Assembly (NCBI GenBank): GCA_963828735.1
Contig: CAWHFW010000005.1
Coordinates: forward strand, 256,001 to 320,000
Direction of reading: 5' to 3'
Source: an uncultured Gemmatimonadales bacterium
GTDB lineage: Bacteria; Gemmatimonadota; Gemmatimonadetes; Gemmatimonadales; GWC2-71-9
Length of the DNA stretch: 64,000 nucleotides
The notes beneath the pieces were generated by a model. It searched no databases. It saw nothing but the letters and a program-made list of their open reading frames with translations, and had not been told where the DNA came from. This document shows positions 14,507-64,000 of this stretch, in pieces. The stretch's first letter is position 1. Each line of letters opens with the position of its first letter. The translations under genes were made by a program, and so were the position numbers.

Positions 14507-16279
14507 TCAGTGAGTGGGGAGAAAGCCCCGCAGCGGATCGCGACGCTCCGGGGGACGCGAACGGCGGACGACCGCCGGCTTGAGCGGGGTCAGTAGCGAC
14601 GCCGGCATGACCCGGAAGACGACCACGCCGGACATCGAGTCCACCCCGGTGAGGATGGCATTGAATTTCCCGACCGCGTGAGCCGTGTCCCGGACCCGAA
14701 CCGAGCTGGTGCGGTCGAGCGGGTAGTAGCCCAGCCGAAGCGAGTCGCCGGGCGCGATGATGCACGCGCAGTCGAATGTGTCACGGCCGCTCACGACCGC
14801 GGCCTCGATGCGTCGGCCGCTGCGGTTCACGATCAGCGGCGCGAACCGTGGCCGCCCCCCCGTCCCGGCGGCGACGACCTCGCGCACGTCGCCGCGCACG
14901 TCGTCGGCCACGATGCTGCCCTCCACTTCCCCGCCCAGCGGCCGGCCGGTTCCCGCGGTAGGGCGCACCATCGCCCAGTGCGCCTCGAGCGGTCGGCGCG
15001 GCCGCAGCGGCAGGCGGAGGCTATCGCCCGAGCGCACGGTGAAGCCGGTGTCGTCGAGCGTGAGCGCGATGGGCTCCGTGAGACGGTTGTACACCACCAG
15101 CGATGCGTGCGGCCGCACCGATGCCCAGAGCGCTCCCACCACCGCCACGAGACCGAGCGCCACGAGGGCCCGGCGTCGTCCGACGCGACGACGAGCCCGG
15201 GGCATCGCGGCCGTCGGCGTTTCGTCCTCCGCGGAGGCGGCCGGGAGGCGGGCCGGAGCGGCGCCGTCGTCCTGGACCGCGCCGGGCACCGGGGTGGACA
15301 GGCCTGCCCTCCGTCCGTCCCGGATCGCTTCGAGCACGGCGCGCGCGCTCGGATAGCGGTCGTCCGGGTGTTTGGCGAGGCACCGGAGGATGATCGCCGT
15401 AAGCCAGGGCGGCACGCGATCCCGCGAGAGGGTGGCCACCGGGACCGGCTGGTGCAGGTGACGGGTGACGATCTCCTGCGAATCGTTCCCCTCGAACGGC
15501 GGCGCGCCGGTCAGCATCTGGAACAGCACGACGCCCATTCCGTACACGTCCGCCCGAGCATCCACGTCGTCCCGCCCGAGCGCCTGCTCCGGACTCATGT
15601 ACAATGGCGTGCCCACGATGAAGCCGGTCTGCGTGTGACCGGCCGCCCCATCCAGATCCTTCACGATGCCGAAGTCGACCAGGAGCGGGCGCCCCGTTCC
15701 GGACTCGATGAGAATGTTGTCCGGCTTCACGTCCCGATGCACCAGCCCGGCCTCATGGGCGTGCTGCAGGGTCTCGAGGATCGGCTCCGCGATGGCCAGC
15801 GCGCGGTGGAACGGCAACGCCCCGTCCGCCCGAAGCAGATCGGCCAGCGTGCGCCCCTCGCAGTACGGCATCACGTAGAAGACGAGCCCTTCGACTTCGC
15901 CGACGAAATGGATCGGTAGCGTGTTGGGGTGGTTGAGGCGCGCGATGGCGCGGGCCTCCTGCTTGAAGCGCGCGAGCGTGGCCGGGCTCCAGGGCAGATC
16001 GGCGCGCAGGACCTTCGCCGCGAGCCGACGCTGGAGGTCCTCGTCCCGGACCTCGTAGACCTCGGCGAATCCCCCGCGGCCGAGCAGGCGAACGACCCGG
16101 TATTTGCGCCCGAGCGCCCGCGCGAGCGCGGGCCCGCGATCGGCTTCCGGAACCCGCGGTGAGGGAAGCGGCAGCTCGCCGGTCGCGAGCAACGCCAGGC
16201 TCCCCGGGCCGCAGCGCGGACAGTCGGCGTTGCCCTCGGGGAGCGGGGCGTGACAGGACGAGCAGACCAGCAGGGCCAG
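14507..16279 (-). CDS. Hanks-type Ser/Thr kinase: zinc ribbon, kinase, TM helix, extracytoplasmic domain (probable CTG start)
   Basis: GRGGFAEV, HRDVKPDN, DFG, GTPLYMSPE; in-frame CSSC..CPRC upstream of the first TTG (16192); GGAGG at 16288-16284. Confidence 0.88.
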   Translation of the reverse strand: MALLVCSSCHAPLPEGNADCPRCGPGSLALLATGELPLPSPRVPEADRGPALARALGRKYRVVRLLGRGGFAEVYEVRDEDLQRRLAAKVLRADLPWSPATLARFKQEARAIARLNHPNTLPIHFVGEVEGLVFYVMPYCEGRTLADLLRADGALPFHRALAIAEPILETLQHAHEAGLVHRDVKPDNILIESGTGRPLLVDFGIVKDLDGAAGHTQTGFIVGTPLYMSPEQALGRDDVDARADVYGMGVVLFQMLTGAPPFEGNDSQEIVTRHLHQPVPVATLSRDRVPPWLTAIILRCLAKHPDDRYPSARAVLEAIRDGRRAGLSTPVPGAVQDDGAAPARLPAASAEDETPTAAMPRARRRVGRRRALVALGLVAVVGALWASVRPHASLVVYNRLTEPIALTLDDTGFTVRSGDSLRLPLRPRRPLEAHWAMVRPTAGTGRPLGGEVEGSIVADDVRGDVREVVAAGTGGRPRFAPLIVNRSGRRIEAAVVSGRDTFDCACIIAPGDSLRLGYYPLDRTSSVRVRDTAHAVGKFNAILTGVDSMSGVVVFRVMPASLLTPLKPAVVRRSRPPERRDPLRGFLPTH

Positions 16280-16481
16280 AACACCTCCGTTGGAACCCAG
16301 TGGAACCCACGGCCCTGTAAAGCTTAACGCATCCGTCGAGGGGGGGTGAGTGCAATTTTGGGGATGGGTGAAGCGGTGGTGGCTTCAGGCATATTATGCA
16401 GTCATTGTGGCCCAATTCTCGTCTACTGCGGTCAGGTTTGCACCTATGAACAGCATTTTGTGCAATGTGTGCACGATTCTC

Positions 16482-16510
16482 TTGACATGAAAAGTGCCGG
16501 TTCGTATACT
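16482..16510 (+). promoter_or_regulatory. Sigma70-type promoter for glnA
   Basis: TTGACA(16482-16487)-17 nt-TATACT(16505-16510). Confidence 0.8.
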
Positions 16511-16516
16511 CCGCTA

Positions 16517-16703
16517 GTCGAGATGCCGGACCCTGTACCCGGAGCCACGATGCGCCAGTCCTTCCGAAATCCGTCGCCGCGCCATCGCGAACCGCCCGGG
16601 CCCCCGTCCCGCTGCCCCGCAGCGTCCCCGATGCCCCTGCGTTCGCGATGCGACGCAGGGGCATCTCACTGAGATCCACCTCCACCACCAGCGCGAGACC
16701 GCC
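16517..16703 (+). promoter_or_regulatory. Structured 5' leader of glnA
   Basis: 16-bp hairpin at 16630-16665; competing perfect helices 16520-16527:16660-16667 and 16583-16592:16641-16650. Confidence 0.5.
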
Positions 16704-18170
<1,467 letters not shown>

Positions 18171-18211
18171 TGCACCGCGAGGCCTGATAGCGCGTTCGCG
18201 GTAGCGACGCC

Positions 18212-18269
18212 CGTGGGACGTGAGTCGCGGGTCGTGGGATCTCCCACGGCCCGCGACTCACGGCTTCAC
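18212..18269. repeat. Inverted heptamer-repeat hairpin between glnA and ilvD
   Basis: CGTGGGA/CGTGAGT/CGCGGGT/CGTGGGA followed by their inverse; stem of about 21 bp at 18219-18262 with one G-U pair. Confidence 0.65.
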
Positions 18270-18292
18270 CGCCCCCCCTCTACATTTCCGTC

Positions 18293-19969
18293 ATGCCCGA
18301 CTCCCTCCGCAGCGCCGCGATCACCGCCGGCGTCCAGCGCGCGCCCAACCGCGCCATGCTTCGCGCCGTCGGCTTCGGCGACGCCGACTTCGGCAAGCCC
18401 ATCATCGGGATCGCGAACGGCTACAGCACGATCACGCCGTGCAACGCGGGACTCGACGTCCTCGCGCGGCGGGCGGAGGCGGCGGTACGCGCCGCCGGGG
18501 CCATGCCGCAGCTGTTCGGCACGATCACGGTGAGCGACGGGATCTCGATGGGAACCGAGGGCATGAAGTACTCGCTCGTCTCGCGCGAGGTGATCGCCGA
18601 CTCGATCGAGACGGCCTGCGGCGCCGAGAGCATGGACGGGGTGGTGGCGGTGGGCGGGTGCGACAAAAATATGCCGGGTGCCATGATCGCGATGGCCCGG
18701 ATGAACATTCCGGCCATCTTCGTCTACGGCGGCACGATCAAGCCGGGGCACCTGCACGGCCGCGACCTCACGGTCGTGAGCGCCTTCGAGGCGGTGGGGC
18801 AGTTCAGCGCGGGCCGGATCGACGAGCGCGAGCTGCTCGACGTCGAGCGCCACGCCTGCCCGGGCATGGGCTCGTGCGGCGGGATGTTCACCGCCAACAC
18901 CATGTCCTCCGTGTTCGAGGCGATGGGCATGAGTCTGCCGCGCTCCTCGACGATGGCGGCCGAAGACGGCGAGAAGGCGGACAGCGCGGCCCGCTCGGGC
19001 GAAGTGCTGGTGGCGGCGGTTCGCCGCGACATCCGGCCGCGGGCCATCCTCACCCGGCAAGCGTTCGAGAACGGCATCGCCGTGGCGATGGCGCTCGGAG
19101 GGAGCACCAACGCGGTCCTCCACCTGCTCGCCATCGCCCACTCGGCGGGCGTCCCGCTGGCCCTGGACGATTTCGAGGCGATCCGCGCGCGCGTCCCGGT
19201 ACTCTGCGATCTCAAGCCGTCGGGCCGCTACGTCGCCACCGACCTCCACGCGGCCGGCGGCGTGCCGCAGGTCATGAAAATGCTCCTGGCGCACGGCCTG
19301 CTGCACGGCGACGCCCTCACCGTCAGCGGCGACACCATCGCCGAAACGCTTCGCGACGTGCCCGAGGCGCCGCGTGCGGACCAGGACGTCATTCGTCCCT
19401 GGACGCGCCCCCTCTATGCCCAGGGGCACCTGGCGGTGCTGCGGGGCAACCTGGCCCCGGAGGGATCGGTCGCGAAGATCGCCGGCGTGAAGGAGCCCCG
19501 GATCACCGGGCCCGCGCGCATCTTCGAGTCCGAAGAGGCCTGCCTCGACGCCATCCTCGATGGTCGGATCCGGGCGGGCGACGTCCTTGTGATCCGCTAC
19601 GAGGGTCCACGGGGCGGGCCGGGAATGCGCGAAATGCTGGCGCCGACCTCGGCCATCATCGGCGCCGGCCTGGGCGACTCGGTCGCGCTGATCACCGACG
19701 GCCGGTTCTCGGGCGGCACCTACGGCCTGGTGGTGGGACACGTCGCCCCGGAAGCTGCCGTCGGCGGGCCGATCGCCCTGCTCGAGGAAGGCGACCTCAT
19801 CACCATCGACGCGAACGAACGGCTGTTGGCCGTGGACGTCTGCGAGGAGGAGCTCGCGAAGCGGCGCGAGGCGTGGACGCCGCCGCCGGCCCGCTACACA
19901 GCCGGCGTCCTCCACAAGTACGCCCGACAGGTGTCGAGCGCGAGTCTGGGCGCGGTGACCGATCTCTAA
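18293..19969 (+). CDS. ilvD: Dihydroxy-acid dehydratase
   Basis: [32 protein letters not shown] motifs. Confidence 0.96.
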
Positions 19970-19973
19970 CGCC

Positions 19974-20639
19974 CTGGCCGTCGATCGTCCGCAGTCGGCG
20001 TCCCGGGCGACGCGAAGCGCGGTCCTCGCGGGCGTCTGCTTCGCCTTGTTCGGCGCGGTCGCAGTCGCTGTGTTGGCCGGATGGACCCAGGCGCTCGACG
20101 TTCGCCTGATGCTGGCCGTCGGCCAGCTCAGGACGGACGAGCTGACGATCGTGATGCAATCGGTCAGCGCCATCGGCGCCGGCGAAATCGAGGTGCCCCT
20201 CGCCCTGCTCCTGAGCCTCCGCCTGTCCATGATTCGCCGTCGACCTGAGGCGGCAGGCTACGCCGCCGCCACTCTGAGCGGCTGGGCCCTCTATGGCGTG
20301 ACCAAGTGGGTGTTCCAGCGCCACCGCCCGCGCGTCATTCCGAGGCTGTCCTCGGCGGGCTGGCTCTCCTTTCCTTCCGGTCACGCCACCATGGCGCCAC
20401 TGGTGTTCGGCCTCGGCATCCTGATCTGGTCCGCGCCGTTGGCGCGAGGCACGCGGGTCGCGCTGCTCGTGCTGGCCGCCTTCGTGTCGCTCCTCATCGC
20501 CTTCTCGCGCGTGTACCTGGGCGTTCATTGGCCGACCGACGTGCTGGCAGGTCTGCTGCTCGGAACGGGGTGGGCGGCGCTATGGGTGTGGTGGTGGGAG
20601 CAGGCCGACCTGAGGCGCTCGAAGGTTCGGAATCCCTAG
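19974..20639 (+). CDS. PAP2-family membrane phosphatase (probable CTG start)
   Basis: K....R.RP, SFPSGH, SRVYLGVHWPTDV; the first TM helix begins upstream of TTG 20046; in-frame CTG 4 nt after the ilvD stop. Confidence 0.85.
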   Translation: MAVDRPQSASRATRSAVLAGVCFALFGAVAVAVLAGWTQALDVRLMLAVGQLRTDELTIVMQSVSAIGAGEIEVPLALLLSLRLSMIRRRPEAAGYAAATLSGWALYGVTKWVFQRHRPRVIPRLSSAGWLSFPSGHATMAPLVFGLGILIWSAPLARGTRVALLVLAAFVSLLIAFSRVYLGVHWPTDVLAGLLLGTGWAALWVWWWEQADLRRSKVRNP

Positions 20640-20683
20640 AGGCAGGGCTCGCCCGTCGAGGCGCGCGAGGGTCGCCTGAGCGG

Positions 20684-21769: not shown

Positions 21770-22377
21770 ACCGAATTCCGAGCCGTGAGGGCGGCGCGAC
21801 GCCGCTCGAAAGCGGCGATCCTGGGTTCCTCCAGCAGGGTCATCCCGATCTCGTCGAGCCCCTTCAGAAGCATCTCGCGACGGTAGTCATCGAACTCGAA
21901 GGTGGCCGCGAAGCCCTCACCGTCATGAACGCGGCGTTCCCGCAGGTCGATCGTGACGCGGTGGTGCGGCGACGAATCCGCGCGCTCGGCGAGCGCACGG
22001 ACCTGGCCCTCTGGCAAAACCACGGGCAGTAAGCCATTTTGACAGCAGTTCCCAAAGAAGATGTCTGCGAAGGACGGGGCAATGATCGCCCGGAATCCGT
22101 AGTCCGCGAGGGCCCATGGGGCATGCTCCCGGGAGCTGCCGCACCCGAAATTCGAGCCCGAGATCAGAATCGTGGCGCCGGTCGCGCCGGGGCGGTTGAG
22201 CTCGAAGTCCGGGTTCGGCGAGCCGTCGGAGAGGTACCGCCAGTCGTAGAACAACGAAGGACCGAATCCGGTCCGTTCGATGCGCTTGAGGAACTGCTTC
22301 GGGATGATCTGATCGGTGTCGACGTTCGCTCGCGGGAGCGAAACAGCACGTCCGCTATGCAAAATGAAGGGCTGCAT
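21766..22377 (-). CDS. leuD: 3-isopropylmalate dehydratase small subunit
   Basis: [28 protein letters not shown] motifs. Confidence 0.96.
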
Positions 22378-22378
22378 A

Positions 22379-22531: not shown

Positions 22532-22533
22532 CA

Positions 22534-25019: not shown

Positions 25020-25033
25020 TGCTCCGTCTCTCG

Positions 25034-38805: not shown

Positions 38806-39633
38806 TCAGGCCGTGGCCGGCACACCTGAGACCAGCCGTCCGGCAAGGCCCATCAAGATGGGCCGGTCGACCGAGGCCGTCCAGGCGGACGGAATCGCCG
38901 CTGCCCCGTCGCGGGCCCCGAGCAGCGCGCCGACCAGTCCCGCCCTGCCGGCCCTCGCCGAGCCCGCCCCCGCGAACTCGGCGAGGCCGCGCTCGAGCAA
39001 CGGCTCGTGGTAGGCGAGACGAAGTGCCGCCACGACGTCGGCCGGCGCGTGACCGGCCGCGACGGCGGCCTCCTCGACCTGCGCGCGGCGCGGTAGCGGC
39101 ACGCGCCGTACGGCAAGGAGTAGCTCCTCCGGCACATCGTTACTTCGAAGCGCCTCGATGACGTCGGGCACCACATCCCGCTTCCCGTTCACGCAGCCGG
39201 CGACGGCGACGTTCATCGCCACCGCCGCCCACGCGACCAGGGGGTGAGGATGGGTCAGCGCGACCACGTGATAGGTCGCGCTCACGAGGGTGCGAGGCGC
39301 GTCGTGGCAGGCCAGCGCGATCGGGACCGCGCGCAGCAGCGGGTCGCTGCCGAGACCGGCCGCCTGGGACGGAGGAGCATCGTGACGCGTAAGGTGGGCC
39401 AGCGCGGCGCTGGTCTCGGCATCGATGTCCGTCGAATCGGCCGCGTGGCGCGCTACCCATCGATGCGCCAGCGCCTGGAGGTCGCGACGCCCGGATGCGA
39501 GCTCGTCGGCGAGGAGGAGCATCAGCGCCATGGTGCCGTCCGGGCCCCGGTCCTGCGCCAGCGCGCGTCCCGCGCCAAGGCCGAGGAGCGCGCCCGCGGC
39601 GCGATCGGTGAGCGTGGAAACGGGCTTGGTCAG
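38806..39633 (-). CDS. ADP-ribosylglycohydrolase-fold protein, catalytically degenerate (probable CTG start)
   Basis: DRAAGALLGL N-terminal motif, THP, GALLGARDG..AIP..W C-terminal motif; GGAG 5 nt before CTG at 39633. Confidence 0.75.
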   Translation of the reverse strand: MTKPVSTLTDRAAGALLGLGAGRALAQDRGPDGTMALMLLLADELASGRRDLQALAHRWVARHAADSTDIDAETSAALAHLTRHDAPPSQAAGLGSDPLLRAVPIALACHDAPRTLVSATYHVVALTHPHPLVAWAAVAMNVAVAGCVNGKRDVVPDVIEALRSNDVPEELLLAVRRVPLPRRAQVEEAAVAAGHAPADVVAALRLAYHEPLLERGLAEFAGAGSARAGRAGLVGALLGARDGAAAIPSAWTASVDRPILMGLAGRLVSGVPATA

Positions 39634-43027: not shown

Positions 43028-44950
43028 CTATCTCACCGGAACATCACCTTCCAAATACGTGTACCCCTCGAGCCCGGCCACGAAGTCGGCGATGAAGCTG
43101 TTCGCCTCCTGCCGGCTCAGCTCCTTGGCCGCGCTCACCTTGCGGCGGAACGTGGCCAGCAGGTCGGAGGCGTGGAACTGCACGTAGTTCAACACCTCGG
43201 TGACCGTGTCGCCATGGACCAGGTCGGTGATCTCATAGCCCTGCTCGGTGAGCCGGACGTGCACGGCGTTCGTATCACCGAACAGGTTGTGCAAATCACC
43301 GAGAATCTCCTGGTACGCGCCGGTGAGAAAGATGCCGAGGATGTAGGGTTCGCCCTCGTGCACCGGATGCACCTCGAGCGAGGGCTTCCCCTTCCGGCCG
43401 CCGGCGAAGCGGTCGATCACGCCGTCCGAGTCGCAGGTGACGTCCTGCAGGGTCCCGCGCCGCGTGGGCTGCTCGGTTAGCCGGTGGATCGGCATGATCG
43501 GAAAGAGCTGGTCGATCGCCCAGTTGTCGGGCAGCGACTGAAAGACGGAGAAGTTGCAGAAGTAGCGGTCCACCAGCGCGCCATCGATGTGGGCGGCGAT
43601 CTCGGGGAACGATGAGCGGTCCTCGCCCATGGCATGCTGGATGGAGTTGAGCGTGACCAGGTACAGCTGGTCGGCGGCGGCCTTCTCGCGCAGGGAGAAC
43701 ACTCCGCTCGCGAAATATTCCTGCGCCCGCTCCTTGGCGAACACGGCGTCATGGAAGGCCTCCTCAACCCGGTCGGCGGAGAGCTCGTCCAGGTTCTCGG
43801 CCATCTCCTTGAGCAGCGGGTGGGCATCCTTCTCGAGCTCGGGCGGGACCGGTTCGATCTGGGATTCGACGTCGATGACATTGATGAGCAGCAGCGCGTG
43901 GTGCGCCGTGAGCGCGCGGCCGGACTCCGAGATCAGGTGCGGCATCGGGAGACCCTCGGTGCGGCACACGGCTCCAATGGTGTACACCACGTCGTTCGCG
44001 TATTCCCGCATCGAGTAGTTCATGCTGGCGGGCCGCGTGGATCGCGAGCCGTCGTAGTCGACCCCCAAGCCGCCGCCCACGTCGACGTGAGTCAGATCGA
44101 ACCCCATGCCGCGGAGCTCGGCGTAGTACCGGCCGACTTCCTCCAGGCCGGCCTTCACGTAGCGGATGTCGGTGATCTGGCTGCCCAGGTGGAAGTGCAC
44201 GAGCTTCAGGATGTCCTTGCGCCCCAGGCGATCGAGCTGGTCGAGGAGCCGCATGAGCTCCACCGCGCCGAGGCCGAACTTGGAGCGCTCGCCGCCGCTC
44301 TTGGCCCACCGCCCCGAGCCTTCGGTCGCGAGCTTGACCCGGACGCCGGCCGTCGGCTGCACGCCCATCTCGTCCGCCACCTTGAGCAGGACCTCGAGCT
44401 CGTTCAGCTGCTCGAGCACGATCATGACGGTGTGACCCAGGCGCTGCCCCATGAGCGCCAGCCGCATGAACTCCTCGTCCTTGTAGCCGTTGCAGACGAT
44501 GAGATGGGTGGTGTTCTCGTTGAGGCCGAGGATGGCCTGAAGCTCCGGCTTGCTCCCGCACTCCAAGCCCACGCCATGGGGCGCGCCGAACTCCACGATC
44601 TCCTGCACCACATGTCGCTGCTGATTGACCTTGACCGGATACACCGTCGTGTAGCTGCCGTCGTAGCCGAATTCCTTGATGGCGCTGGCGAACTGGGACG
44701 CCAGCGATTCGATCCGGGACCGCAGGATATCGCTGAAGCGGAGCAGGAGCGGAAGGCCGACGCCCTGGGCGTTGAGATCCATCGCGAGCTGATAGAGATC
44801 GAGCCCGCGCTTGCGATTGGTGTCGGGGTGGACGGTGACGTGCCCGTCAGGGCTCACGCGGAAGTAGCCCAGTCCCCAGCCGCTCATGTTGTAGAGCTTC
44901 TCGGCGTCCTTGACGCTCCAGCTCGGCTGGGCGACGACAGTGGTGGCGAT
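43028..44950 (-). CDS. speA: Biosynthetic arginine decarboxylase (probable ATC start)
   Basis: YPVKVNQ (PLP lysine), HFHLGSQI, DVGGGLG, TCDSDG, GAYQEILG; conserved WS..DA..LY...WG.GYF begins upstream of the ATG at 44887. Confidence 0.93.
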   Translation of the reverse strand: MATTVVAQPSWSVKDAEKLYNMSGWGLGYFRVSPDGHVTVHPDTNRKRGLDLYQLAMDLNAQGVGLPLLLRFSDILRSRIESLASQFASAIKEFGYDGSYTTVYPVKVNQQRHVVQEIVEFGAPHGVGLECGSKPELQAILGLNENTTHLIVCNGYKDEEFMRLALMGQRLGHTVMIVLEQLNELEVLLKVADEMGVQPTAGVRVKLATEGSGRWAKSGGERSKFGLGAVELMRLLDQLDRLGRKDILKLVHFHLGSQITDIRYVKAGLEEVGRYYAELRGMGFDLTHVDVGGGLGVDYDGSRSTRPASMNYSMREYANDVVYTIGAVCRTEGLPMPHLISESGRALTAHHALLLINVIDVESQIEPVPPELEKDAHPLLKEMAENLDELSADRVEEAFHDAVFAKERAQEYFASGVFSLREKAAADQLYLVTLNSIQHAMGEDRSSFPEIAAHIDGALVDRYFCNFSVFQSLPDNWAIDQLFPIMPIHRLTEQPTRRGTLQDVTCDSDGVIDRFAGGRKGKPSLEVHPVHEGEPYILGIFLTGAYQEILGDLHNLFGDTNAVHVRLTEQGYEITDLVHGDTVTEVLNYVQFHASDLLATFRRKVSAAKELSRQEANSFIADFVAGLEGYTYLEGDVPVR

Positions 44951-45285
44951 GGCGCAACTCCGGCAAAGGAGAAGGCGGCAAATGTAATGGGCTTTAGCGG
45001 AGATTACCTCCCCCGGTTACGGCTCCGCGTCGGTCCCGACAGGTTCCCGTGCCTCACACCCAGCCACGGGTCAGCCTGTCGCCACTCCCCCCGCAGGGCG
45101 AGCGGCCAGCCCTGTTTTGCCGATCAAGCCGGACGCCTGTAGTCCCACAACGGCGTCTCGGGCGCAGTAGCGCCCGTGCCACAGCGCGCGTTTCTGCGCC
45201 TCTGTGCAAGCCCTCGCATGACTACTAAGTCGTCATTCCGTAACCGGATGCGGGCGAGCATCCGGACGGGCGGGCGGCGGCCCGA

Positions 45286-46117: not shown

Positions 46118-47197
46118 ATGCGGTGGTCGTATACGATCGCACGAATCGCCGGCACGGACGTGAAGGTCCACGTGACCTTCCTACTGCTGCTGGGCTACAT
46201 CGCGTACGACGCGTGGTCCGTCGAGGGGCCAGCCGCCGCGGCGGCCTACACGTTGTTCTTCATCGCCTTCTTCCTCTGCATTCTCCTCCACGAGTTCGGG
46301 CACATCACGATGGCTAGGCGATTCGGCGTGCGCACACCGGACGTGATTCTCCTGCCCATTGGCGGCGTGGCGCGATTGGAGCGCATTCCAGAGGATCCGC
46401 GGCAGGAGCTCCTGGTGGCGCTCGCGGGACCGGCCGTCACGGTGGCCATCATCGTCGGGCTCCTCGTCGCCATCCTCGCTACAGGCGGGTCCCTGGTCCA
46501 CCCCGATCCGTTGGCCGAGAGCACCCCGTTCCTGGTGCGGCTCCTCGGCGTCAACGTCTACGTGCTGGGGTTCAATCTCCTGCCCGCCTTTCCGCTCGAC
46601 GGCGGGCGCGTGCTGCGGGCGTTGCTCGCGCGCCGCATGGGACTGGCGCGGGCCACGAGGATCGCCGGGGCGATCGGGCAAGTCTTCGCCGTGGGGTTGG
46701 GCGTGCTGGGGTTCGTCCAGAGTCAGCCGCTGTGGATGCTCGTCGCGTTCTTCATCTTCCTTGGCGCCGGCAGCGAGGCCAGCGCGGTGGCCACCCGCCT
46801 CGCCGGCCGGGGGCTCACCGTCTCCCACATGATGGTGACCGAGTTCCGGACCATTCCGGTGCATGCGTCGCTCCAGCAGGCCGTGGACCTGCTGCTGTCG
46901 GGCGAGCAGCGCGAGTTTCCAGTGGTGGACAACCTGGGCCGGACCGAAGGGCTGCTGACGCGAGACAACCTGATCCGCGGCCTGAGCCGCCTGGGACCTG
47001 CGGGCACCGTCAGCGAGGCGATGACCACGGACACCCCGACCGTGACGCCCACGCTCGGGTTTCAGGAGGCGCTCGACCGGCTCCGAGCCAGCGGGCTGCC
47101 CGCCCTGCCGGTCGTGGACGCCGGAGGGGCGCTCGTCGGGCTTCTGACCAAGGACAACATCACCGACCTGCTGCTGGTGCGGGGAGCCACACGGTAG
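46118..47197 (+). CDS. Site-2 protease (M50) with tandem CBS domains
   Basis: HEFGH, NLLPAFPLDGGR, C-terminal CBS pair. Confidence 0.92.
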   Translation: MRWSYTIARIAGTDVKVHVTFLLLLGYIAYDAWSVEGPAAAAAYTLFFIAFFLCILLHEFGHITMARRFGVRTPDVILLPIGGVARLERIPEDPRQELLVALAGPAVTVAIIVGLLVAILATGGSLVHPDPLAESTPFLVRLLGVNVYVLGFNLLPAFPLDGGRVLRALLARRMGLARATRIAGAIGQVFAVGLGVLGFVQSQPLWMLVAFFIFLGAGSEASAVATRLAGRGLTVSHMMVTEFRTIPVHASLQQAVDLLLSGEQREFPVVDNLGRTEGLLTRDNLIRGLSRLGPAGTVSEAMTTDTPTVTPTLGFQEALDRLRASGLPALPVVDAGGALVGLLTKDNITDLLLVRGATR

Positions 47198-47211
47198 GCT
47201 CCCGCCGTCGG

Positions 47212-49113
47212 TCAGCGGAGCCGGTTGTTGCCCCGCTCGACGTCCGGCAACACTGACCGGGGATCGACCAGCACGCCGGTGACCTTCTTGCCGCCGCGGA
47301 CGCGGTAGGCGAAGGCCGGACCCAGGTTCCACATCTCGACCGGCAGCCGCACCCGCTCCGTGGTCCCGTCCTCGTAGGTCAGGTCCATCTCCAACGGCAG
47401 GGTCATCGTACCCCGATTGGAGAGAAAGACCTTCTGCTGTTTCTCGACCATCGCTACCGAGTCCACCGCCTGATCGAGCCGGGCCGTCGAGTAAATCCAG
47501 TCGCGCCAGAAGAAGTCCAGATCCATCCCGGATGCGTCACGCATGGTGCGGAAAAAATCGGCGGGGGTGGGGTGCTTGAACGCCCATGCCCTCAGGTACC
47601 GCCGGAACGCGTCGTCGAAGCGCTCCTTGCCCAGGACCTCGTAGCGGAGGGTCTGCATCATCAACGCCGGCTTCTGGTACCCGGTCCAGAACAGGTCGTG
47701 GGACTCGACGGGCCGGCTGATGAGCGGCTCCTCCTTCCCCGGGATGGCGTGATCGGCGTACAGGTGGAGCGGGTGTACCTCGATGCTGTCACCGTACGGG
47801 GTGCCCTTGAAGTAGCGGGCCGCGTTGCCCAAATCGATGAACGTGTTGAAACCCTCATCCATCCAGGGGTAGAGCCGCTCGTTCGAGCCGACGATCATGG
47901 GAACCCACTGATGTCCCAGCTCGTGAGCCAGCACCCACTGCCGCTCTTCCCGGCTCGGCGAGCGCGGGCAGAAGGTGATCATCGGGTACTCCATCCCCTC
48001 GATCGGGCCCTCGATGCTGGTGATGTGCGCATAGGGGTACGGATACCACTGCTCGCTGTAGTATTGCACCGCATCGCGCACCATCCGGTTGGCTTCCTCC
48101 CACTCCGGCGCCGACGATCGGTAGAGCGTGTGAACCAGCGTGCGGCGATACGCGCTTGCGTCCCACCGGAAGTCCGGCGCCGCTCCAAAGGCGAAGTCCC
48201 GGACACTGTCCGCCGAGAACCGCCACGTGAGCGTCCCGGACGAGGTCGGTCGGGTACGCGCCGCGTCGCCGGCCTCGTCCGCGCTGATGATGGCGACAGG
48301 CGTCGCCGAGCTCCGGGCCTTGTCGAGGCGGGCACGCTGGGTGGCCGTCAGCACCTCGGCAGCATTGAGCAGCACGCCGGTCGCGCCCACGACGTAGGTC
48401 GCCGGCACCGTGAGGGCGACGTCGAAGCGCCCGTACTCGAGATAGAACTCGCCGCCACCGATGTAGGGCTCGTGGTTCCATCCGCGCACGTCGTCGTACA
48501 CCACGACGCGCGGGTACCACTGGCCGAGCTCGTAGAGGGTCCCATCGCGTCCCATGCGCCCCGCGCCGTAGTCGGGCACGGTGAACCGCCAGCCGATGTC
48601 GAGGTCGATGAACCGCCCCGGTGCGAGCGGCCGCGGCAGGTTCACCCGCATCGTGGTGCCGTAGACGACGGTGGGCACCTCGTGGAGCCCGAGGCGCACG
48701 TGCTCCAGGGTGAGTCCGCCCGCGAAGCTCTTGCACGAGAAATCGAAGATCGATCCGAGGAAGACCAGGGCGGGCTGATCGAGCTGATTGGTCACGCTGC
48801 CCGGCGCGCAGATGTTCTGCTCGAGAAACAGCCAGACGTAGGGCAGCGAATCCGGACTGTGATTGACGTAGTGGATCGTCTCGCGGCCGCGGAGCTCGTG
48901 CCGCTCGGGATCCAGGGTGGCCCGGATGCGATAGTCCACGCGTTGCTGCCAGTAGGCTCGCCCCGGCCGGCCGGAGCCCGTCCGCGCCTCGCTCGGCGCG
49001 GGGAGCACGAGGGGCCGGAAGGGGGAGCTGCCGACGGAATCGGAGGATTGCGCGCGGACGGGGCCCGCGAGCGCGAGGAGCAGGGTGGCCATGCACGCGG
49101 GGCGGCGAGACAT
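47212..49113 (-). CDS. Secreted M1 family metallopeptidase
   Basis: Signal peptide; GMEYP and HELGH...W.DEG motifs. Confidence 0.9.
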   Translation of the reverse strand: MSRRPACMATLLLALAGPVRAQSSDSVGSSPFRPLVLPAPSEARTGSGRPGRAYWQQRVDYRIRATLDPERHELRGRETIHYVNHSPDSLPYVWLFLEQNICAPGSVTNQLDQPALVFLGSIFDFSCKSFAGGLTLEHVRLGLHEVPTVVYGTTMRVNLPRPLAPGRFIDLDIGWRFTVPDYGAGRMGRDGTLYELGQWYPRVVVYDDVRGWNHEPYIGGGEFYLEYGRFDVALTVPATYVVGATGVLLNAAEVLTATQRARLDKARSSATPVAIISADEAGDAARTRPTSSGTLTWRFSADSVRDFAFGAAPDFRWDASAYRRTLVHTLYRSSAPEWEEANRMVRDAVQYYSEQWYPYPYAHITSIEGPIEGMEYPMITFCPRSPSREERQWVLAHELGHQWVPMIVGSNERLYPWMDEGFNTFIDLGNAARYFKGTPYGDSIEVHPLHLYADHAIPGKEEPLISRPVESHDLFWTGYQKPALMMQTLRYEVLGKERFDDAFRRYLRAWAFKHPTPADFFRTMRDASGMDLDFFWRDWIYSTARLDQAVDSVAMVEKQQKVFLSNRGTMTLPLEMDLTYEDGTTERVRLPVEMWNLGPAFAYRVRGGKKVTGVLVDPRSVLPDVERGNNRLR

Positions 49114-55873: not shown

Positions 55874-55878
55874 CCGCG

Positions 55879-56424
55879 ATGCCCCTCGAAGCGTTCATCG
55901 TCCTCGGCGACGCTCTCTGGCTGGACTTCGTCAACACCGCCCGCGGCCGCACGGCCTTCCCTCCCGATCAACTCCCCGATCCTGACGCCTACGCCGCGTG
56001 GTGTGCCCGCCAGCAGGTGGCTGGCGCTGGCGGGGCAATCCCTTTCCCCCGAGTGCTCGCGTTCCGGGACCGGCTGAGCGAGCTGGCGGAGGCGCTGGCG
56101 GACCGGCGCCAGGTGCCCGGCGCCGCGATCGCAGCACTCAACGATCTCCTGGGCCGGAGCCCTGGCATCCAGCGGCTGACGCGGGTTCGCGGCGAGTGGC
56201 GGCTCCGCTTCGCGCCGGTCCGCGCGCCCGAGGCGCTGGAGGCGATCGCCCGCTCGGCGGCGGCGACGCTGGTCGACACGCGGCTCGCCGTCCGCCGTTG
56301 CGCGGCCGAGGGCTGCTCCCTGCTGTTCGCCGACAACTCGCCCACCGGTGTCCGGCGCTGGTGCGATCCCGCCACGTGCGGCCTCAACGGCCGAGTCGAG
56401 CGACGCCGCGGGCTCCGCCGATGA
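55879..56424 (+). CDS. ABATE/CGNR zinc-finger protein
   Basis: LDFVNT N-terminus; C....C...F.D.S....RRWC....CG motif. Confidence 0.85.
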   Translation: MPLEAFIVLGDALWLDFVNTARGRTAFPPDQLPDPDAYAAWCARQQVAGAGGAIPFPRVLAFRDRLSELAEALADRRQVPGAAIAALNDLLGRSPGIQRLTRVRGEWRLRFAPVRAPEALEAIARSAAATLVDTRLAVRRCAAEGCSLLFADNSPTGVRRWCDPATCGLNGRVERRRGLRR

Positions 56425-58175
56425 CCACGCCGAATCCGGTCGCTTCGTTCGACCGCACCCGCGCGGCGTTGGGCGACCGCTACCGGCTCGAGCGCATCGC
56501 GGCCGCCAACGCGGACCGGGTGCTGTTCGAAGCGTACGATGAGACGCTCAAGCGGCGCGTGAGCGTCCGGATCAACTTCTTCCGTGACGGCGCCATCCGC
56601 GCCTGGTTCCTCCGGGAGGCGGAGGCGCTCGGGCAGCTCGACCATCCCGCCATCCGGCACGTCTACGACGCGGGCGTCGTGGGCGATCTGGCGTACCGCA
56701 TCGGGAATTGGATCGAGGGGGAGGGCCTGGCCGATGCCGTGCATCGGGGACCGCGCATCATCCCCGCGGTCCTGTCTCTCGCGCGCGATCTGCTCGGCGC
56801 GCTCGATCACGCCCACCTCCAGGGCATCATCGTGCGCCGGATCTCTCCGGCCTCGGTCCTCGTCAGCGCGAGCGGTCGCGGGACCGTGACCGACCTTCGC
56901 TGGAGCAGCTACACGCTGCCGGCCATTCCGGCCGGCACCGCCCCCAGCATGCTGATGTTCATGGCCCCGGAGGTGCGCGGCGGCGCGGTGGGCGATCCCG
57001 CCTGCGACGTGTATACCGCCGGGGCGCTGCTCTACTTCGCGGTCACCGGCCAGGAGCCCCCGCTCGACGTGCGGCAGCTCCGGCGGCCCACCGAGCTCCG
57101 CCCGACGTGCCCCCGGGCCATCGAGCGCATCGTGATGCGCGCGCTCAAGCTCGCCCCGGATGATCGGTACCTGACGGCGGCGGAAATGCTGGAGGATCTG
57201 GCGTCGGACGCCGGAACGTTCGAGACCCGCGCGGCGGCGGTGGTGCAAGGGCCGATCACCGACTCGGAGGAGAGCACGCGGGTCGAGAAGTGGCTCCGCC
57301 GCGCGCTGGGCGACGACTACGAGCTGCTGTCGCTCCTCGGGCGCGGCGGGTTCGGCAGCGTGTATCGGGTGCGGGATCTCCATCTGGAGCGCGAGGTGGC
57401 CCTCAAGGTCCTGCACCCGGCGCTCACACAGGATCCCGAGGTGATCGAGCGGTTCCGGCGCGAGGCGCAGCTCGCCGCGGGTCTGAGCCACCCGAACATC
57501 GTGAACATCTACGACATCGCGGGGCGCTTCGGCCTCATCTGGTACACGATGGAGCTGGTCAACGGGCCCAGCCTTGCGCAGCTCGTGGAGCGTGACGGCC
57601 CTCTCTCGCTGGAGCAGGTACTCCGGCTGCTTCGGGAGGCGCTCTCCGCTCTGGCCCACGCGCATGGCTCGGGGCTGGTCCATCGGGACATCAAGCCGGA
57701 GAACATCCTGATCGACCCGACCGGGAGCGTGCAGATCACCGACTTCGGCCTCGCCCTCGCGCTCCGAGGAAAGTTCGGCGGGGCCACCAGCCAGAGTGGG
57801 ACGCCGCAGTTTGCGAGCCCCGAGCAACTGCTGGGAGAGCGCGTGGATCAGCGCTCCGACCTCTACAGCCTGGCCGCCGTCGCCTACTACGCGTTGCTCG
57901 GCATGCCGCCGTTTCCGGGCGCGACCACCGAGCAAGTCCTGGCGCGACAGACGACTAACCAGTTTCCGGCCCCACGTGAGCAGCGCGACGACGTGAGCGA
58001 GGCGTTCGAGCGCGTGCTCGATCGCGCGCTGAGCGCGGACGTGGAGAGTCGCTTTCCATCGGCGGCAGAATTCCTGCAGGCGGTCAACCGGGCGTCGGAG
58101 CCGGGGCACCGGGAGCCCGTCGCGGACTGGGCGCGGGCCGCCGCGCGGTGGCTCAGAGGGTCGCCTCTTGACTAA
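56421..58175 (+). CDS. Tandem pseudokinase-Ser/Thr kinase protein
   Basis: Two Hanks-type domains; only the second has GRGGFG, VALK, HRDIKPEN and DFG; ATGA overlap with the CGNR gene. Confidence 0.88.
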   Translation: MTTPNPVASFDRTRAALGDRYRLERIAAANADRVLFEAYDETLKRRVSVRINFFRDGAIRAWFLREAEALGQLDHPAIRHVYDAGVVGDLAYRIGNWIEGEGLADAVHRGPRIIPAVLSLARDLLGALDHAHLQGIIVRRISPASVLVSASGRGTVTDLRWSSYTLPAIPAGTAPSMLMFMAPEVRGGAVGDPACDVYTAGALLYFAVTGQEPPLDVRQLRRPTELRPTCPRAIERIVMRALKLAPDDRYLTAAEMLEDLASDAGTFETRAAAVVQGPITDSEESTRVEKWLRRALGDDYELLSLLGRGGFGSVYRVRDLHLEREVALKVLHPALTQDPEVIERFRREAQLAAGLSHPNIVNIYDIAGRFGLIWYTMELVNGPSLAQLVERDGPLSLEQVLRLLREALSALAHAHGSGLVHRDIKPENILIDPTGSVQITDFGLALALRGKFGGATSQSGTPQFASPEQLLGERVDQRSDLYSLAAVAYYALLGMPPFPGATTEQVLARQTTNQFPAPREQRDDVSEAFERVLDRALSADVESRFPSAAEFLQAVNRASEPGHREPVADWARAAARWLRGSPLD

Positions 58176-58418
58176 ACGCAACCCCGCGACAGATTTATGC
58201 GCGCTTGGCCATGGCCAGGCCCGAACGGACCGCCGAAACAACACCCACCCTGGCGTTCGCGGCTAGGGTTTATCTCGTTCAAAATCAAGACTATAGCTGA
58301 CGAGCACGGCAGGTCGGCTACCCGCTTTGCATCACTCGGGATAGGCCCGAGCGTATGCAAACTCGGTGGACCACGCACGTGGTCCCCGACGCAGTCAAAC
58401 AAACATGGAGTAGGAGCA

Positions 58419-58631
58419 ATGGCTCGCACCCTAGGCACGGTGAAGTGGTTCAACGACGCGAAGGGCTTTGGTTTCATCACTCCGGAGAATGGGGACAAGG
58501 ACTGCTTTGTCCACCACACCGCCATCAAGGCAGAGGGCTTCCGCAGCCTTGCCGAGGGTGACCGGGTGGAGTTCGACATCGTGCAGGGTGCGAAGGGGCC
58601 TGCCGCTGAGAACGTGGTCAAGCTCAAGTAA
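58419..58631 (+). CDS. Cold-shock protein
   Basis: [15 protein letters not shown] and DCFVH motifs; AGGAG ribosome-binding site. Confidence 0.96.
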
Positions 58632-58649
58632 GCACGATCGACTGTAACT

Positions 58650-58686
58650 CAACGGGCCGCTCGACAGAGCGGCCCGTTGTTGTTTC
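58650..58686 (+). terminator. Intrinsic terminator after the cold-shock gene
   Basis: CAACGGGCCGCTC-GACA-GAGCGGCCCGTTG-TTGTTT. Confidence 0.82.
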
Positions 58687-58749
58687 GGATGCCTCCATGG
58701 CGCCGGCGCCGGACCGTCAGCCGGTCGGGATCGGGCGCGTATTCCGGGG

Positions 58750-58968
58750 TCACTTGTGGCGATAGATCACCCGGCCGCGCGTCAAATCGTAGGGGGAGAG
58801 CACGACACTGACCCGGTCGCCTTCGAGCACCCGGATCTTGAACTTGCTCATCTTCCCGGCGGCGTACGCCAGGATCTCGTGACCGTTCTCGAGCATCACC
58901 CGGTAGTTCCGGTCGGGCAACACCTCGGTCACGACCCCTTCCATTTCGATCCCTTCTTCTTTGGCCAT
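58750..58968 (-). CDS. infA: Translation initiation factor IF-1
   Basis: [18 protein letters not shown]...[13 protein letters not shown], 72 aa. Confidence 0.96.
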
Positions 58969-59184
58969 CCAGGCTCTCCTATAACGAGACAGGCAATCGG
59001 CGCCGCGGCACCGGGCTCGGCAGCGCCGGGCTCGGGGGAGGAATCTTGCGCCGAGGGGGCCGGGAAGCAACTCGTCGGGGGGTGGCGAGAGGCGGTTGGG
59101 ACAGGAGCTGAATGGCCGCGGAGGCTGGGATGGGTGGGTGGCCATCCCCCCCTCGGGCGGAACCTGGCAGCTCGCTCTCGGACC

Positions 59185-60900: not shown

Positions 60901-61049
60901 GAGCGCTCCTGCGGTGGGCGGTCGAAGTGGTGCCGAGATATAACCGTGATCGCGCGAAGGCCACAATAGTTGCATCCGGGACCGCGGGAGGCGGCGGAAC
61001 GGCCAGGCGAAGAGCCCGGAACGCTCACGTCGGCCCGAGCGCGCGCGGC

Positions 61050-63017
61050 TCAGGCACGCTCGCTGCGGTCGTACCGATAGTAGAGGTACGCGAGCGAGAG
61101 CGCCACGAGCGCCAACAGGAACACCGAGCCGACGCGATAGAGCGCATCGAGCGAGGAGAGGTCGAAGAAGACCACCTTGAAGACCGCGAGCCCCGCCACG
61201 GCCAAGCCCGCCACGCGTGCAGGCTGCAGCGAGAGGCGAAATCCGACCGTGACCAGCGTGGCCGCGTACAGGAGCCACCAGGCGCTGACCGCGAGACCCG
61301 ACGCAAGGCTCGCCGTCTCGGCAGTCAGACTGCGAAGCTCGAAGAAGCGCCTGAGCTCCCCCGTCACGCCGAAGAGCGCCATGGCCCCGGCGGCCACCCA
61401 GAGGCCCGAGCGGATCAGGCGGGTATCCTCTCGCCCACCTTCCACCCGCCAGAGCCGCGCGGCGAATGCGAACGTCACGGCCACAGTGCCCCACAGCGCG
61501 AGCGGCCACGGCCCGACGAAGGCCTGGTCGTCCGCACCCCTGATGCCCGCGGCGCCATCGAACAGCTGCTGCGCCGCCGCGATCAGCGTCAGGAGGCCGT
61601 ACCAGCGGCCGTCGGTTCGGTCGAGCCGCCGATCGAGGAGCGCCCAGAGCCCCGCGAGTGCCAGGAGAGCCCAGACTTGCGGCACGCCATCCCAGCGCTG
61701 CACGGCGGACACGCCCAGGGCCGTCGCACCCACCGCGGCGAAGGCGGGTCGGGGCCGCAGGTACCCGGCGGCCAGGTACGGAACCGCCACGATCGCCGGC
61801 GCCAGCCACGGCCGCGCGTCGAAGAAGTGCGCGTCCAGGCCGTGCACGGCCCACCCGAGCAGGATCGGCGTGACGAAGAAGTACAGCGCTTCGCCGGCGG
61901 ACCAGCCCGGGCCCGCACCGCGCGGCCCGAGATGGAGTGGGCTGACCTGGGGCCGGCGGAGCCCATGCCACCACACCGGCGCCGTGAGCACCAGTCCGGC
62001 GATCAGCACCGCCCAATGCTGCGGAATCCGCTGCCCGGCCACGGCGAGCAACGTCCACCCGCCGCCGAACGTCAGCAGTCGAGTCTCCCACCAGCGCTCG
62101 CGCAGCCCCACATACAGGCCGGCGCTCCCGCCCACCAGGCCATACAGGAGCACCCCCCAGGGGTGGGCGTGATCCGCCGCCCCGATCGTTCCGACGCCGA
62201 AATAGCTGGCGGCGACGACCAGGGCGGCGAGGCGCCATTGCCGCCGGGCAGCCACCATGCCGAGACCCGCGGCCATGCAGAACAGATAGAGCAGCAGCAG
62301 GTCGGCATTGGCCTGGTTCCGACCCAGCAGGATCGGAGCGAAGAACGCGCCGAGCGCGGCGGTGACGCCGAGCGCCTCGACGTTGATCGCGTAGGCGATC
62401 ATGGCCAGGGCGGCCGAGACCAGCGCGAGTCCTACGATTCCGGAGGTCGAGGGCAGGACACCGTAGAGCTCGGACGCGGCCCAGATGGACAGGTAGATGA
62501 TGCCGGCACCAGTCCCGATGAGAGCGGCGCCGTAGGTGCGGTAGCGGGACTCGAGCCGCCACCCGAGCGCGCCGATGGCGAGCCCGGTGACCACGCCACC
62601 CACGCAGCGCAGGACCGGGGAGATCCAGCCCCGGTCGAAGCTGAGCTTCAGCAGGTAGCCAGCGGCCAGCAGCAGCGCGACGACGCCGATGCCCAGGAAC
62701 ACCCGTTGGCCTATCCACCGCTCCGAGTCGAGCGAGGGCGTGCGGGCGCCTTTGCGACCGGGTGCCGGGCGAGCGATGGGCTGCGGACGAGGGGGGGCGG
62801 CGGGCCGCGGGGGCGGCAGTTCCGCGCGGGGCGGCGGCTCTACAGGGGGCGAGGCTCCCGGCGGTGGCGCCGCCGTATCAACGGAACGCGCCGCCGGCGG
62901 TGCGACGGACGCCTCGGGCGCTCGCGGCGTCCCGCTTCCAGCGGCGAGCTGCCGGATCAGGGTCTCGAGCACGGCGACCCGCTGTTCGAGGCGGTCGAGC
63001 CGGTCTTCGCTGCTCAG
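61050..63017 (-). CDS. DUF2339 family multi-pass membrane protein (probable CTG start)
   Basis: Coiled N-terminus SSEDRLDRLEQRVAVLE, Pro-rich linker, ERWIG, KVVFFDLSSL..LYRVGS. Confidence 0.8.
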   Translation of the reverse strand: MSSEDRLDRLEQRVAVLETLIRQLAAGSGTPRAPEASVAPPAARSVDTAAPPPGASPPVEPPPRAELPPPRPAAPPRPQPIARPAPGRKGARTPSLDSERWIGQRVFLGIGVVALLLAAGYLLKLSFDRGWISPVLRCVGGVVTGLAIGALGWRLESRYRTYGAALIGTGAGIIYLSIWAASELYGVLPSTSGIVGLALVSAALAMIAYAINVEALGVTAALGAFFAPILLGRNQANADLLLLYLFCMAAGLGMVAARRQWRLAALVVAASYFGVGTIGAADHAHPWGVLLYGLVGGSAGLYVGLRERWWETRLLTFGGGWTLLAVAGQRIPQHWAVLIAGLVLTAPVWWHGLRRPQVSPLHLGPRGAGPGWSAGEALYFFVTPILLGWAVHGLDAHFFDARPWLAPAIVAVPYLAAGYLRPRPAFAAVGATALGVSAVQRWDGVPQVWALLALAGLWALLDRRLDRTDGRWYGLLTLIAAAQQLFDGAAGIRGADDQAFVGPWPLALWGTVAVTFAFAARLWRVEGGREDTRLIRSGLWVAAGAMALFGVTGELRRFFELRSLTAETASLASGLAVSAWWLLYAATLVTVGFRLSLQPARVAGLAVAGLAVFKVVFFDLSSLDALYRVGSVFLLALVALSLAYLYYRYDRSERA

Positions 63018-63027
63018 AAGCGTTCCG

Positions 63028-64000
63028 TCATGTCGCGCGCGCCTCCTCCGGGGTCGATGCGGCTACCTGTGGGTCCCTGGGAACCTGCAACATGAGAACG
63101 GCAGCGACGGTGACGATGCCGCCGGCCACGAAGAACGGCCAGTCGTGCCCGAGTCGCTGGTAGATGGTCGTGGCCGCCAGCGGCGCGACCACACGAGCGA
63201 GCCCGGCGAACGTCTGGGCGACGCCCATCGTCGTCCCCAGCTCGCTCGCGTCCGAGTAGCGGGACATGAGCGAGGTCGTCGCCGGGAACAGCAGCGCCGT
63301 GCCAATCGGAACCAGGGGGATGACGGCCGCCAGGGGCCAGAGACTCTCTGGAATAGGATACAGCCACAGGCCCACGGCGAGAAGCAGAGCCCCCAATCGC
63401 ATGGTCCAGCGCTCCCCGAGCCGGTCCACGATGGGGCCAAGGAGGAGGCTCCGCATGACAAGGGACAGGACCCCCACATAGGCGAAGATCCACCCGATCG
63501 TCTTCTCCGTCAGGCCGAACTCCGCCGCGAGATAGAGCGCCAGCACCGAGGTCATCGCCGAGAAAGCCACCATCCCGATCCCGTAGATCCAGATCAGGCG
63601 CGAGACCAGGTTGCCCGGGTGGCGCACCACGAGCCACGCCGGGTGCCAGATGGGTCGGCGCGGGCCCTCCTTCCGAGCCGTGGCCGGCCGCGATTCCGCG
63701 AGCCACCGCCACGCAAAGGCCACGTTGATGAGACACAGCGCGGACGCGACGAGGCCCGGCGCCGCCGGCCCCAGGTTGAACGCGAACGAGCCGATCGCCG
63801 GCCCGAGAATGACGCCCGCTGCCGTCGCCGATGAAAGCCAGCCCAGTGCTCGCGCCCGGTCCTTGGGCTCGACGGTGTCCGCCACATACGCCTGGGCCAC
63901 GCCGGTCGTGCCACCACCGGCGCCCTGCACGATGCGTGAGATGAACAGCAGCCACACCGCGTCGGCGACGCTGAACACCGCGAACGCGATCGCCGACGCG
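63028..64000 (-). CDS. MFS transporter, TetA/DHA1-like (5'-truncated)
   Basis: SRIVQGAGGGT, AYVADT...RARALG, GPAIGS motifs. Confidence 0.88.
   Translation of the reverse strand, partial: ASAIAFAVFSVADAVWLLFISRIVQGAGGGTTGVAQAYVADTVEPKDRARALGWLSSATAAGVILGPAIGSFAFNLGPAAPGLVASALCLINVAFAWRWLAESRPATARKEGPRRPIWHPAWLVVRHPGNLVSRLIWIYGIGMVAFSAMTSVLALYLAAEFGLTEKTIGWIFAYVGVLSLVMRSLLLGPIVDRLGERWTMRLGALLLAVGLWLYPIPESLWPLAAVIPLVPIGTALLFPATTSLMSRYSDASELGTTMGVAQTFAGLARVVAPLAATTIYQRLGHDWPFFVAGGIVTVAAVLMLQVPRDPQVAASTPEEARAT

Follow-up and report, generated by a model that had tools for sequence, protein, structure and literature searches.

The window examined here is a 64-kb stretch of DNA from an uncultured Gemmatimonadales soil bacterium (genome G000, contig C5, positions 256001-320000; assembly of 4.78 Mb, 69% GC), in which a gene caller found 50 genes. 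Five of these, coding for a Ser/Thr kinase, a PAP2 phosphatase, an ADP-ribosylglycohydrolase (ARH)-fold protein, the arginine decarboxylase SpeA and a DUF2339 membrane protein, most likely use CTG or ATC, and not ATG, GTG or TTG, as their start codon, as judged from the comparisons described below. The genes and associated elements are listed here, with proposed start codons, Shine-Dalgarno (SD) sequences and free energies of SD pairing (dG).

14507..16279, minus strand: Ser/Thr kinase with an N-terminal Cys-rich (zinc-ribbon-like) segment, 590 aa; proposed start CTG 16279-16277; Pfam Pkinase
16284..16288, minus strand: SD GGAGG of the kinase gene; dG -10.4 against the genome's own anti-SD
19954..19958, plus strand: SD-type GGTGA in the final ilvD codons; 5 nt aligned spacing to ATC 19962; dG -8.8
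19962..20639, plus strand: PAP2 phosphatase, 225 aa; corrected proposed start ATC 19962-19964, overlapping the ilvD stop by 8 nt
38806..39633, minus strand: ARH-fold gene, 275 aa; proposed start CTG 39633-39631; Pfam PF03747
39639..39642, minus strand: SD GGAG of the ARH-fold gene; dG -5.8
43028..44950, minus strand: speA, biosynthetic arginine decarboxylase, 640 aa; proposed start ATC 44950-44948; TIGR01273
44958..44961, minus strand: SD GGAG of speA; dG -6.5
44981..44986, minus strand: -10-like hexamer TACATT, ca. 35 nt upstream of the ATC of speA
61050..63017, minus strand: DUF2339 membrane protein, 655 aa; proposed start CTG 63017-63015 in a CTGA overlap with the upstream open reading frame; Pfam PF10101

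A first-pass annotation of the window had placed near-cognate starts at CTG 16279, CTG 19974 (for PAP2), CTG 39633, ATC 44950 and CTG 63017. All five codons lie at these coordinates and in frame, with no ATG, GTG or TTG back to the preceding in-frame stop, and the next canonical codon downstream is 29 (kinase), 24 (PAP2, from CTG 19974), 34 (ARH-fold), 21 (speA) and 15 (DUF2339) codons away. The family names are borne out by Pfam matches and, in the case of speA, by an equivalog match. GGAG(G) precedes three of the codons, at 4 nt (kinase), 5 nt (ARH-fold) and 7 nt (speA), and two codons lie at an upstream stop, the PAP2 CTG 4 nt past the ilvD TAA and the DUF2339 CTG overlapping a TGA, as had been described. 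The claim that five window genes have near-cognate starts thus stands, except that the PAP2 codon had been misplaced and is ATC 19962, not CTG 19974. In all five genes the codon is one mismatch away from AUG and keeps the central U, no canonical start is found at or before the conserved N-terminus, and there is either an SD at the proper spacing or a stop overlap; DUF2339 has the overlap and a weak SD (dG -3.5) only. The SD sequences of the five genes are of average strength, with dG from -3.5 to -10.4 versus a median of -6.6 for ATG genes.

The first-pass expectation that gene callers would truncate such proteins was confirmed. For a contig of the same length, the public products of speA, the kinase, the ARH-fold gene and the PAP2 gene are 619, 561, 241 and 176 aa long. 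Counted from the proposed codons, the proteins would have 640, 590, 275 and 225 aa, and the public versions are thus short by 21, 29, 34 and 49 residues, respectively. A truncated DUF2339 product was not found in the public protein collection queried. N-extended forms gave no match either, but as they were entered with Leu, Ile or an unspecified first residue, this negative carries no weight. At two of the five sites, the assembly could be compared with public contigs. A contig covering 63017, which may stem from a related sample, differs from the window at position 63196 only, and a contig from another study covering 44950 shows no difference. An assembly error is thus unlikely at these two sites.

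Start codons in orthologues

Orthologous loci were compared within the organism's own family (f1), in families f2 and f3 of the same order, and in more distant genomes. Since related genomes are not independent, orthologue tallies are given as counts and not as p-values. At the aligned start of the kinase gene, CTG is present in 18 of 25 loci of the genus, GTG in three and ATG in two, while one locus has GTG at +1 and one TTG at +2. Differences in the N-terminal extension fall mainly in third codon positions (0.20/0.14/0.49 for the three positions), whereas upstream of the extension they are even (0.70/0.70/0.71). The start of the ARH-fold gene could be aligned in 11 of 15 loci (four, with cut or late matches, were left out); CTG was found in five, and TTG, GTG and ATG in two each, with GGAG preceding all. 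The DUF2339 comparison covered 11 of 17 family matches: seven have ATG or GTG in the same column and four within two codons, and relative G004 has ATG. CTG is thus seen in G000 only (1/13), and DUF2339 is the weakest of the five cases. None of these three starts is fixed. Two further window genes, 55986-58175 (+) and 11595-12890 (-), have ATG here and CTG in a CTGA overlap in relative G004 or G049, and start exchange therefore runs both ways. When 5' ends of the window genes were compared with up to four relatives, no sixth near-cognate case was seen in G000. The genome contains at least 20 Ser/Thr kinase genes similar to that of the window (E<=1e-60), and in two more of these the start looks to be CTG or ATC.

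The two ATC starts behave differently. CTG 19974..19976 (+) was rejected as the PAP2 start, as CTG occupies this column in 2/21 loci and has no SD (dG -0.5). ATC 19962 is present behind GGTGA in 22/22 loci. In 21 of these it shares the reading frame of the PAP2 domain although the linker varies in length; the exception is a frameshifted copy. In the ilvD tail (GTG ACC GAT CTC TAA), GAT and CTC are kept in 22/22 loci and the Val codon GTG in 21/22, while synonymous sites nearby and upstream vary; GAT makes up 23% of the genome's Asp codons, and 32% before CTn. In speA, the TIGR01273 match begins at residue 11, and the first ATG appears only at residue 22. ATC behind GGAG is present in 17/17 loci of family f1, which represent three genera (15 loci of the same genus and two from other genera), whereas family f2 has ATG in 8/8 loci. 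Upstream GTG or TTG codons are scattered through 8 of the 17 leaders and are not conserved. Orthologue comparison thus supported four of the first-pass codons, those of the kinase, ARH-fold, speA and DUF2339 genes, and did not support CTG 19974.

A TA(C/A/G)A/G(A/T)T-like word is aligned across 17/17 speA leaders, and on this alignment TACATT may act as a promoter element of speA. The short leader (44951-44990, -) also contains a pyrimidine-rich, CTTCGCC-like stretch ahead of the SD, which is kept across the genus.

Candidate near-cognate starts beyond the window

To estimate the genome-wide rate, operon junctions were scanned for CTGA overlaps without a canonical start nearby. In G000, 14 of 1310 junctions (1.1%), or 14 of 136 CTGA overlaps, were of this type, and 40 junctions (3.1%) had no canonical start at all, in part due to assembly breaks. 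Among TGA junctions lacking a canonical start, 14 of 25 were CTGA, with approximately 19% expected (p 4e-5). A junction mixture model attributed 35.5 of the 1310 starts to CTG (2.7%) and 22.4 to TTG (1.7%). In 335 well-aligned orthologue groups, six G000 genes were forced to a near-cognate start, three of them in the window, and about three more were probable. Taken together, near-cognate starts would account for ca. 1-3% of genes, not 10%. The recurrence of such codons, emphasized in the first-pass annotation, exceeds chance as regards their being starts but is not clearly a cluster: five cases among 50 genes have a p of 0.017 at a rate of 3% and of 0.003 at 2%, and there are ca. 75 windows of this size per genome. 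Because the genome-wide rate is about 1-3%, we conclude that 5/50 is a high draw and not a cluster with a cause of its own.

Several procedures yielded candidates or were abandoned. A single-genome mixture model with frame-shifted decoys was discarded, as the decoys took up signal, and a joint multi-genome model served as a candidate list only (decoy CTC reached 5.6% beside 7.6% for CTG). A boundary test flagged 119/308 genes in its first form, which was confounded by overlapping upstream genes; redone with limits, it flagged 43/308, and 29/335 among well-aligned groups. The flagged genes that were inspected proved to be mostly boundary or pairing errors.

The junction scan gave five CTGA cases in 376 junctions of f1 relatives (G004, 3/142; same-genus G140, 0/128; G049 and G066 together, 2/106), none in 178 junctions of f2 and none in 182 junctions of the outgroups Nonomuraea (71% GC), Paraburkholderia and Ensifer. 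For f1 as a whole, the count is 19/1686 versus 0/360 elsewhere (one-sided p 0.025, with related genomes and small controls). These counts are suggestive of an excess of CTG in family f1 over its sister family and GC-rich outgroups. The lineage tendency proposed in the first-pass annotation finds support for CTG in f1, at a rate well below that of the window.

Individual genes outside the window show the same two kinds of behavior. The start of infC is CTG in 10/10 f1 loci and ATC or ATT in 11/11 f2 and f3 loci; the G000 copy is in the C4:37200 region, and in some f6 and f10 genomes infC apparently starts with GTG. truB has CTG in 5/5 f1 loci and a canonical start in all nine other genomes. pth has CTG in five of six f1 loci and TTG in the sixth, TTG and CTG occurring in two genomes of one genus; among nine loci outside f1, six are canonical, one is apparently CTG (f5), one apparently ACG (f7) and one could not be resolved. 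Because TTG is common as well, pth may favour weak starts class-wide. Of 19 genomes across the class, 16 have ATC, ATT or ATA as the start of hflX (11 of 14 sampled from 23 further matched genomes, and 5 of 5 others), two have ATG, and one has ACG or ATC. In a pair of f2 genomes, hflX begins with ATC, a case found among 162 aligned genes, and infC with ATT, and AUH (AUC, AUU or AUA) starts are therefore not special to f1. The G000 copy of hflX (C5:58291-58740, -) has a frameshift near codon 96 (near C5:58450), which is either an assembly error or a sign of a pseudogene. CTG is kept in three to four genomes in yaiI, a solute-symporter-like gene and a gene at C5:250292.

Nineteen candidates from G000 were subjected to a Pfam scan. 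In seven (rimK-like, ydjM, truB, DNA ligase, yaiI, pth and flavin reductase), the profile starts no more than three residues away from the codon proposed; three had no match, and several matched far downstream only and are unanchored. Candidate starts also include the ATA of ydjM, which overlaps a stop (C5:2361711, -) and CTG codons of an RluA/RluD-family gene (C2:244626, -), a UvrD-type helicase gene (C5:2249171, -) and a DedA-type gene (C1:91962, +). Dropped from consideration were a CTG of rpsM, a twentieth candidate removed ahead of the Pfam scan because ATG follows, an ATC of an f2 lipoyl-domain gene with GTG at the family start, an ATA at C5+1149293, and a candidate at C2+389889 with GTG two codons upstream. 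Overall, the sequence comparisons support near-cognate starts in at least about 20 genes of this one genome, mostly CTG.

Initiation machinery and the possible origin of the proposed weak starts

The first-pass annotation had suggested that start selection may be relaxed in this lineage. The components of the initiation machinery offer no support for this, being ordinary in sequence, and broken proofreading is therefore unsupported. A single full-length IF3 copy keeps R25 and Q33. Position 66 of IF3 is Lys in 10/10 f1 genomes and Arg in 33/34 other members of the phylum, with Lys in 4/6 unrelated bacteria; Phe75 is specific to the order within the phylum sample and is found in 2/6 unrelated bacteria. 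It is also present in Geobacillus IF3 (a PDB chain). Both K66 and F75 were rejected as a cause, as both are natural variants in unrelated bacteria. The three G-C pairs of tRNA-fMet are present, as is a 1-72 mismatch, and the anti-SD and the 16S bases G1338/A1339 and A790 are ordinary; the E. coli numbering of these P-site bases was read from the sequence context. The uS9 tail ends in QFSKR, and RsmB and RsmD are present. There are two infA (IF1) genes, one in the window at 58750-58968 (-) and one at C5:2711452-2711643 (+). The window copy, which lies beside a cold-shock gene, matches TIGR00008 above the cut-off, and its counterparts in G004, G049 and G066 share its N-terminus.

The assembly itself contains frameshift-like breaks and 5% contamination. 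Contig C2 carries two 16S genes (13635-15182 and 46434-47965) with a mutual identity of 82%; the former looks, as far as we can judge, actinobacterial, and probably represents contamination or a chimeric join. Two differing tmRNA tags and a tRNA-Sec are also present in the genome.

NCBI translation table 11 lists CTG, ATC, ATT and ATA as alternative starts. All the codons considered here are thus permitted, while their annotated use is far below 1%. Annotated starts are ATG in 81.8%, GTG in 13.8% and TTG in 4.35% of cases, according to one survey, which puts CUG, AUC, AUU and AUA at 1-2% of AUG output in E. coli (10.1101/063800). In S. aureus, AUU and AUA sites were put at ca. 10% in another report (PMC13009471).

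The explanation that we favour, and hold to be somewhat better supported than not, is that the codons are true but weak starts on an ordinary ribosome, CTG being a fourth NTG start in f1 and AUH starts being held by selection. We infer that initiation takes place at these codons with low efficiency: fMet-tRNA would read them in the presence of ordinary IF3, aided by an SD or by coupling to an upstream stop (CTGA or a short overlap). Two classes may be distinguished. In the first, CTG swaps with TTG, GTG and ATG at one position in f1, as in the kinase, ARH-fold, DUF2339 and pth genes. At a GC content of 69%, most of these CTG codons probably arose by a TTG-to-CTG transition and are probably tolerated where little of the product is needed; infC, truB and pth keep CTG across the family. 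CUG use would extend a first-position tolerance that already admits GUG and UUG, and codons with a 3'-G are named as a tolerated start class in a review (PMC4611024). In the second class, selection would hold ATC, ATT or ATA, family-wide in speA, genus-wide in PAP2 and class-wide in hflX. Such a start would keep output low and should be sensitive to the level of IF3, as is the case for infC. A bolder supposition, which we consider less likely than not, is that CUG has become a regular start codon of the whole family f1, about as frequent as UUG, and that IF3 feedback has been rewired onto this codon, with infC, pth and truB fixed at CUG; beside these, an older AUH set (hflX, speA and PAP2) would make both ribosome recycling and polyamine synthesis dependent on the fidelity of initiation.

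Several observations weigh against weak but genuine starts as a feature of this family. The case for initiation is built on sequence comparison. In an SD-anchored triplet test conducted genome-wide, CTG (odds 0.72) and ATC (0.68) were not enriched behind GGAG, while ATG (6.8) and GTG (2.8) were; CTG and ATC did exceed their look-alikes CTC (0.52) and TTC (0.56). The mixture models are noisy, with GTA, CTA and ATA artefacts of 1-4% each in addition to the CTC decoy. The ribosomal-protein genes among those listed start with ATG or GTG. The contrast between f1 and other genomes is weak, and no CTGA case was counted in G140, although it belongs to the genus of G000.

It is possible, though in our view doubtful, that what is seen is an ordinary background: many GC-rich slow growers would hide 1-3% of near-cognate starts, f1 would not be special and the window would be a high draw. 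The ATC and ATT starts of hflX and infC in f2, the CTG or ACG of pth in two genomes outside f1 and a Deinococcus with four such genes (PMC2830850) fit this explanation, whereas the lack of CTGA cases in f2 and outgroups and the restriction of infC and truB CTG to f1 do not. Relaxed proofreading, in which f1 ribosomes or IF3 would accept CUG (and AUH) efficiently and the codons would be near neutral, is improbable. It would agree with the excess of CTG over TTG in the junction model, with the shift of infC itself from ATC/ATT to CTG, with the second IF1 gene and with Lys66, given that AUA initiation in E. coli was reported to be 1.5-2-fold higher with the R66A substitution (PMC9723500). On the other hand, Lys66 and Phe75 are natural elsewhere and the tRNA, 16S, anti-SD, uS9, RsmB and RsmD are ordinary, CTG and ATC are not broadly enriched behind SD sequences, and highly expressed genes, to judge from the ribosomal-protein genes listed, avoid such codons. 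The retention of a near-cognate start by infC is, furthermore, what working IF3 feedback would be expected to give.

A regulatory layer, also envisaged in the first-pass annotation, would make the weak codons switches, with infC, hflX, pth, truB, rluD-like and rimK-like genes coupled to IF3 and speA sensitive to polyamines. The codons are fixed over long distances, several supported cases are ribosome-related, and published studies describe stimulation of weak UUG and GUG initiation by polyamines in E. coli (PMC4405209) and dependence of ccpN AUA efficiency on the medium in S. aureus (PMC13009471). Yet the kinase, ARH-fold and DUF2339 starts swap freely, f2 speA has ATG, translation genes are simply easier to anchor, and stimulation of speA by polyamines would be a positive feedback; we consider such a layer unlikely. 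Only where the codon is fixed, in speA (17/17), PAP2 (22/22), hflX (16/19) and infC, is regulation plausible. An artefact, with assembly errors or initiation at downstream canonical codons, is very improbable. The breaks and contamination in the assembly, the restriction of the DUF2339 CTG to G000 and the fact that many of 125 coding-extension candidates lack a near-cognate codon speak for it, but conservation over 11-25 genomes rules it out for four genes, two sites are matched by public contigs, and the stretches upstream of the canonical codons encode conserved residues as well as a Cys motif and a transmembrane helix.

Weak starts on an ordinary ribosome, the explanation we prefer, have known counterparts. 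infC (AUU/AUA) and pcnB (AUU), which are discriminated by IF3, have a kept near-cognate codon led by an SD (PMC2830850, 10.1101/063800, PMC4611024), like speA, PAP2, hflX and infC here; such genes number two to four in model bacteria, whereas in this genome at least about 20 are supported, mostly CTG, infC itself included. Deinococcus dnaA (ATC), rpsL (CTG) and Deide_03051 (CTG), identified by N-terminal proteomics, use the same two codons in a GC-rich host and are, as here, lineage-conserved and mis-annotated; four genes are involved there, two with peptide evidence, while more genes, free exchange with ATG, GTG and TTG, and CTGA overlaps are found here, known from sequence (PMC2830850). The S. 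aureus starts detected by Ribo-RET in cvfC1 (AUU), ccpN and citZ (AUA) are likewise conserved, SD-assisted weak starts in metabolic or regulatory genes; they number four sites per genome, have an extended SD and are reported to include no CUG, whereas SD strength is average here (PMC13009471). In open-access text, nothing was found on non-canonical starts in Gemmatimonadota or on an ATC/AUU start of hflX.

The findings reveal no new machinery. They do imply that database proteins of an abundant soil order lack 20-50 N-terminal residues, including the Cys motif of the kinase and the transmembrane helix of PAP2, and they provide named, conserved and testable cases for deciding whether bacteria seldom use near-cognate starts or annotation overlooks them. 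We suggest that weak starts may have been selected in hflX and speA, as in infC.

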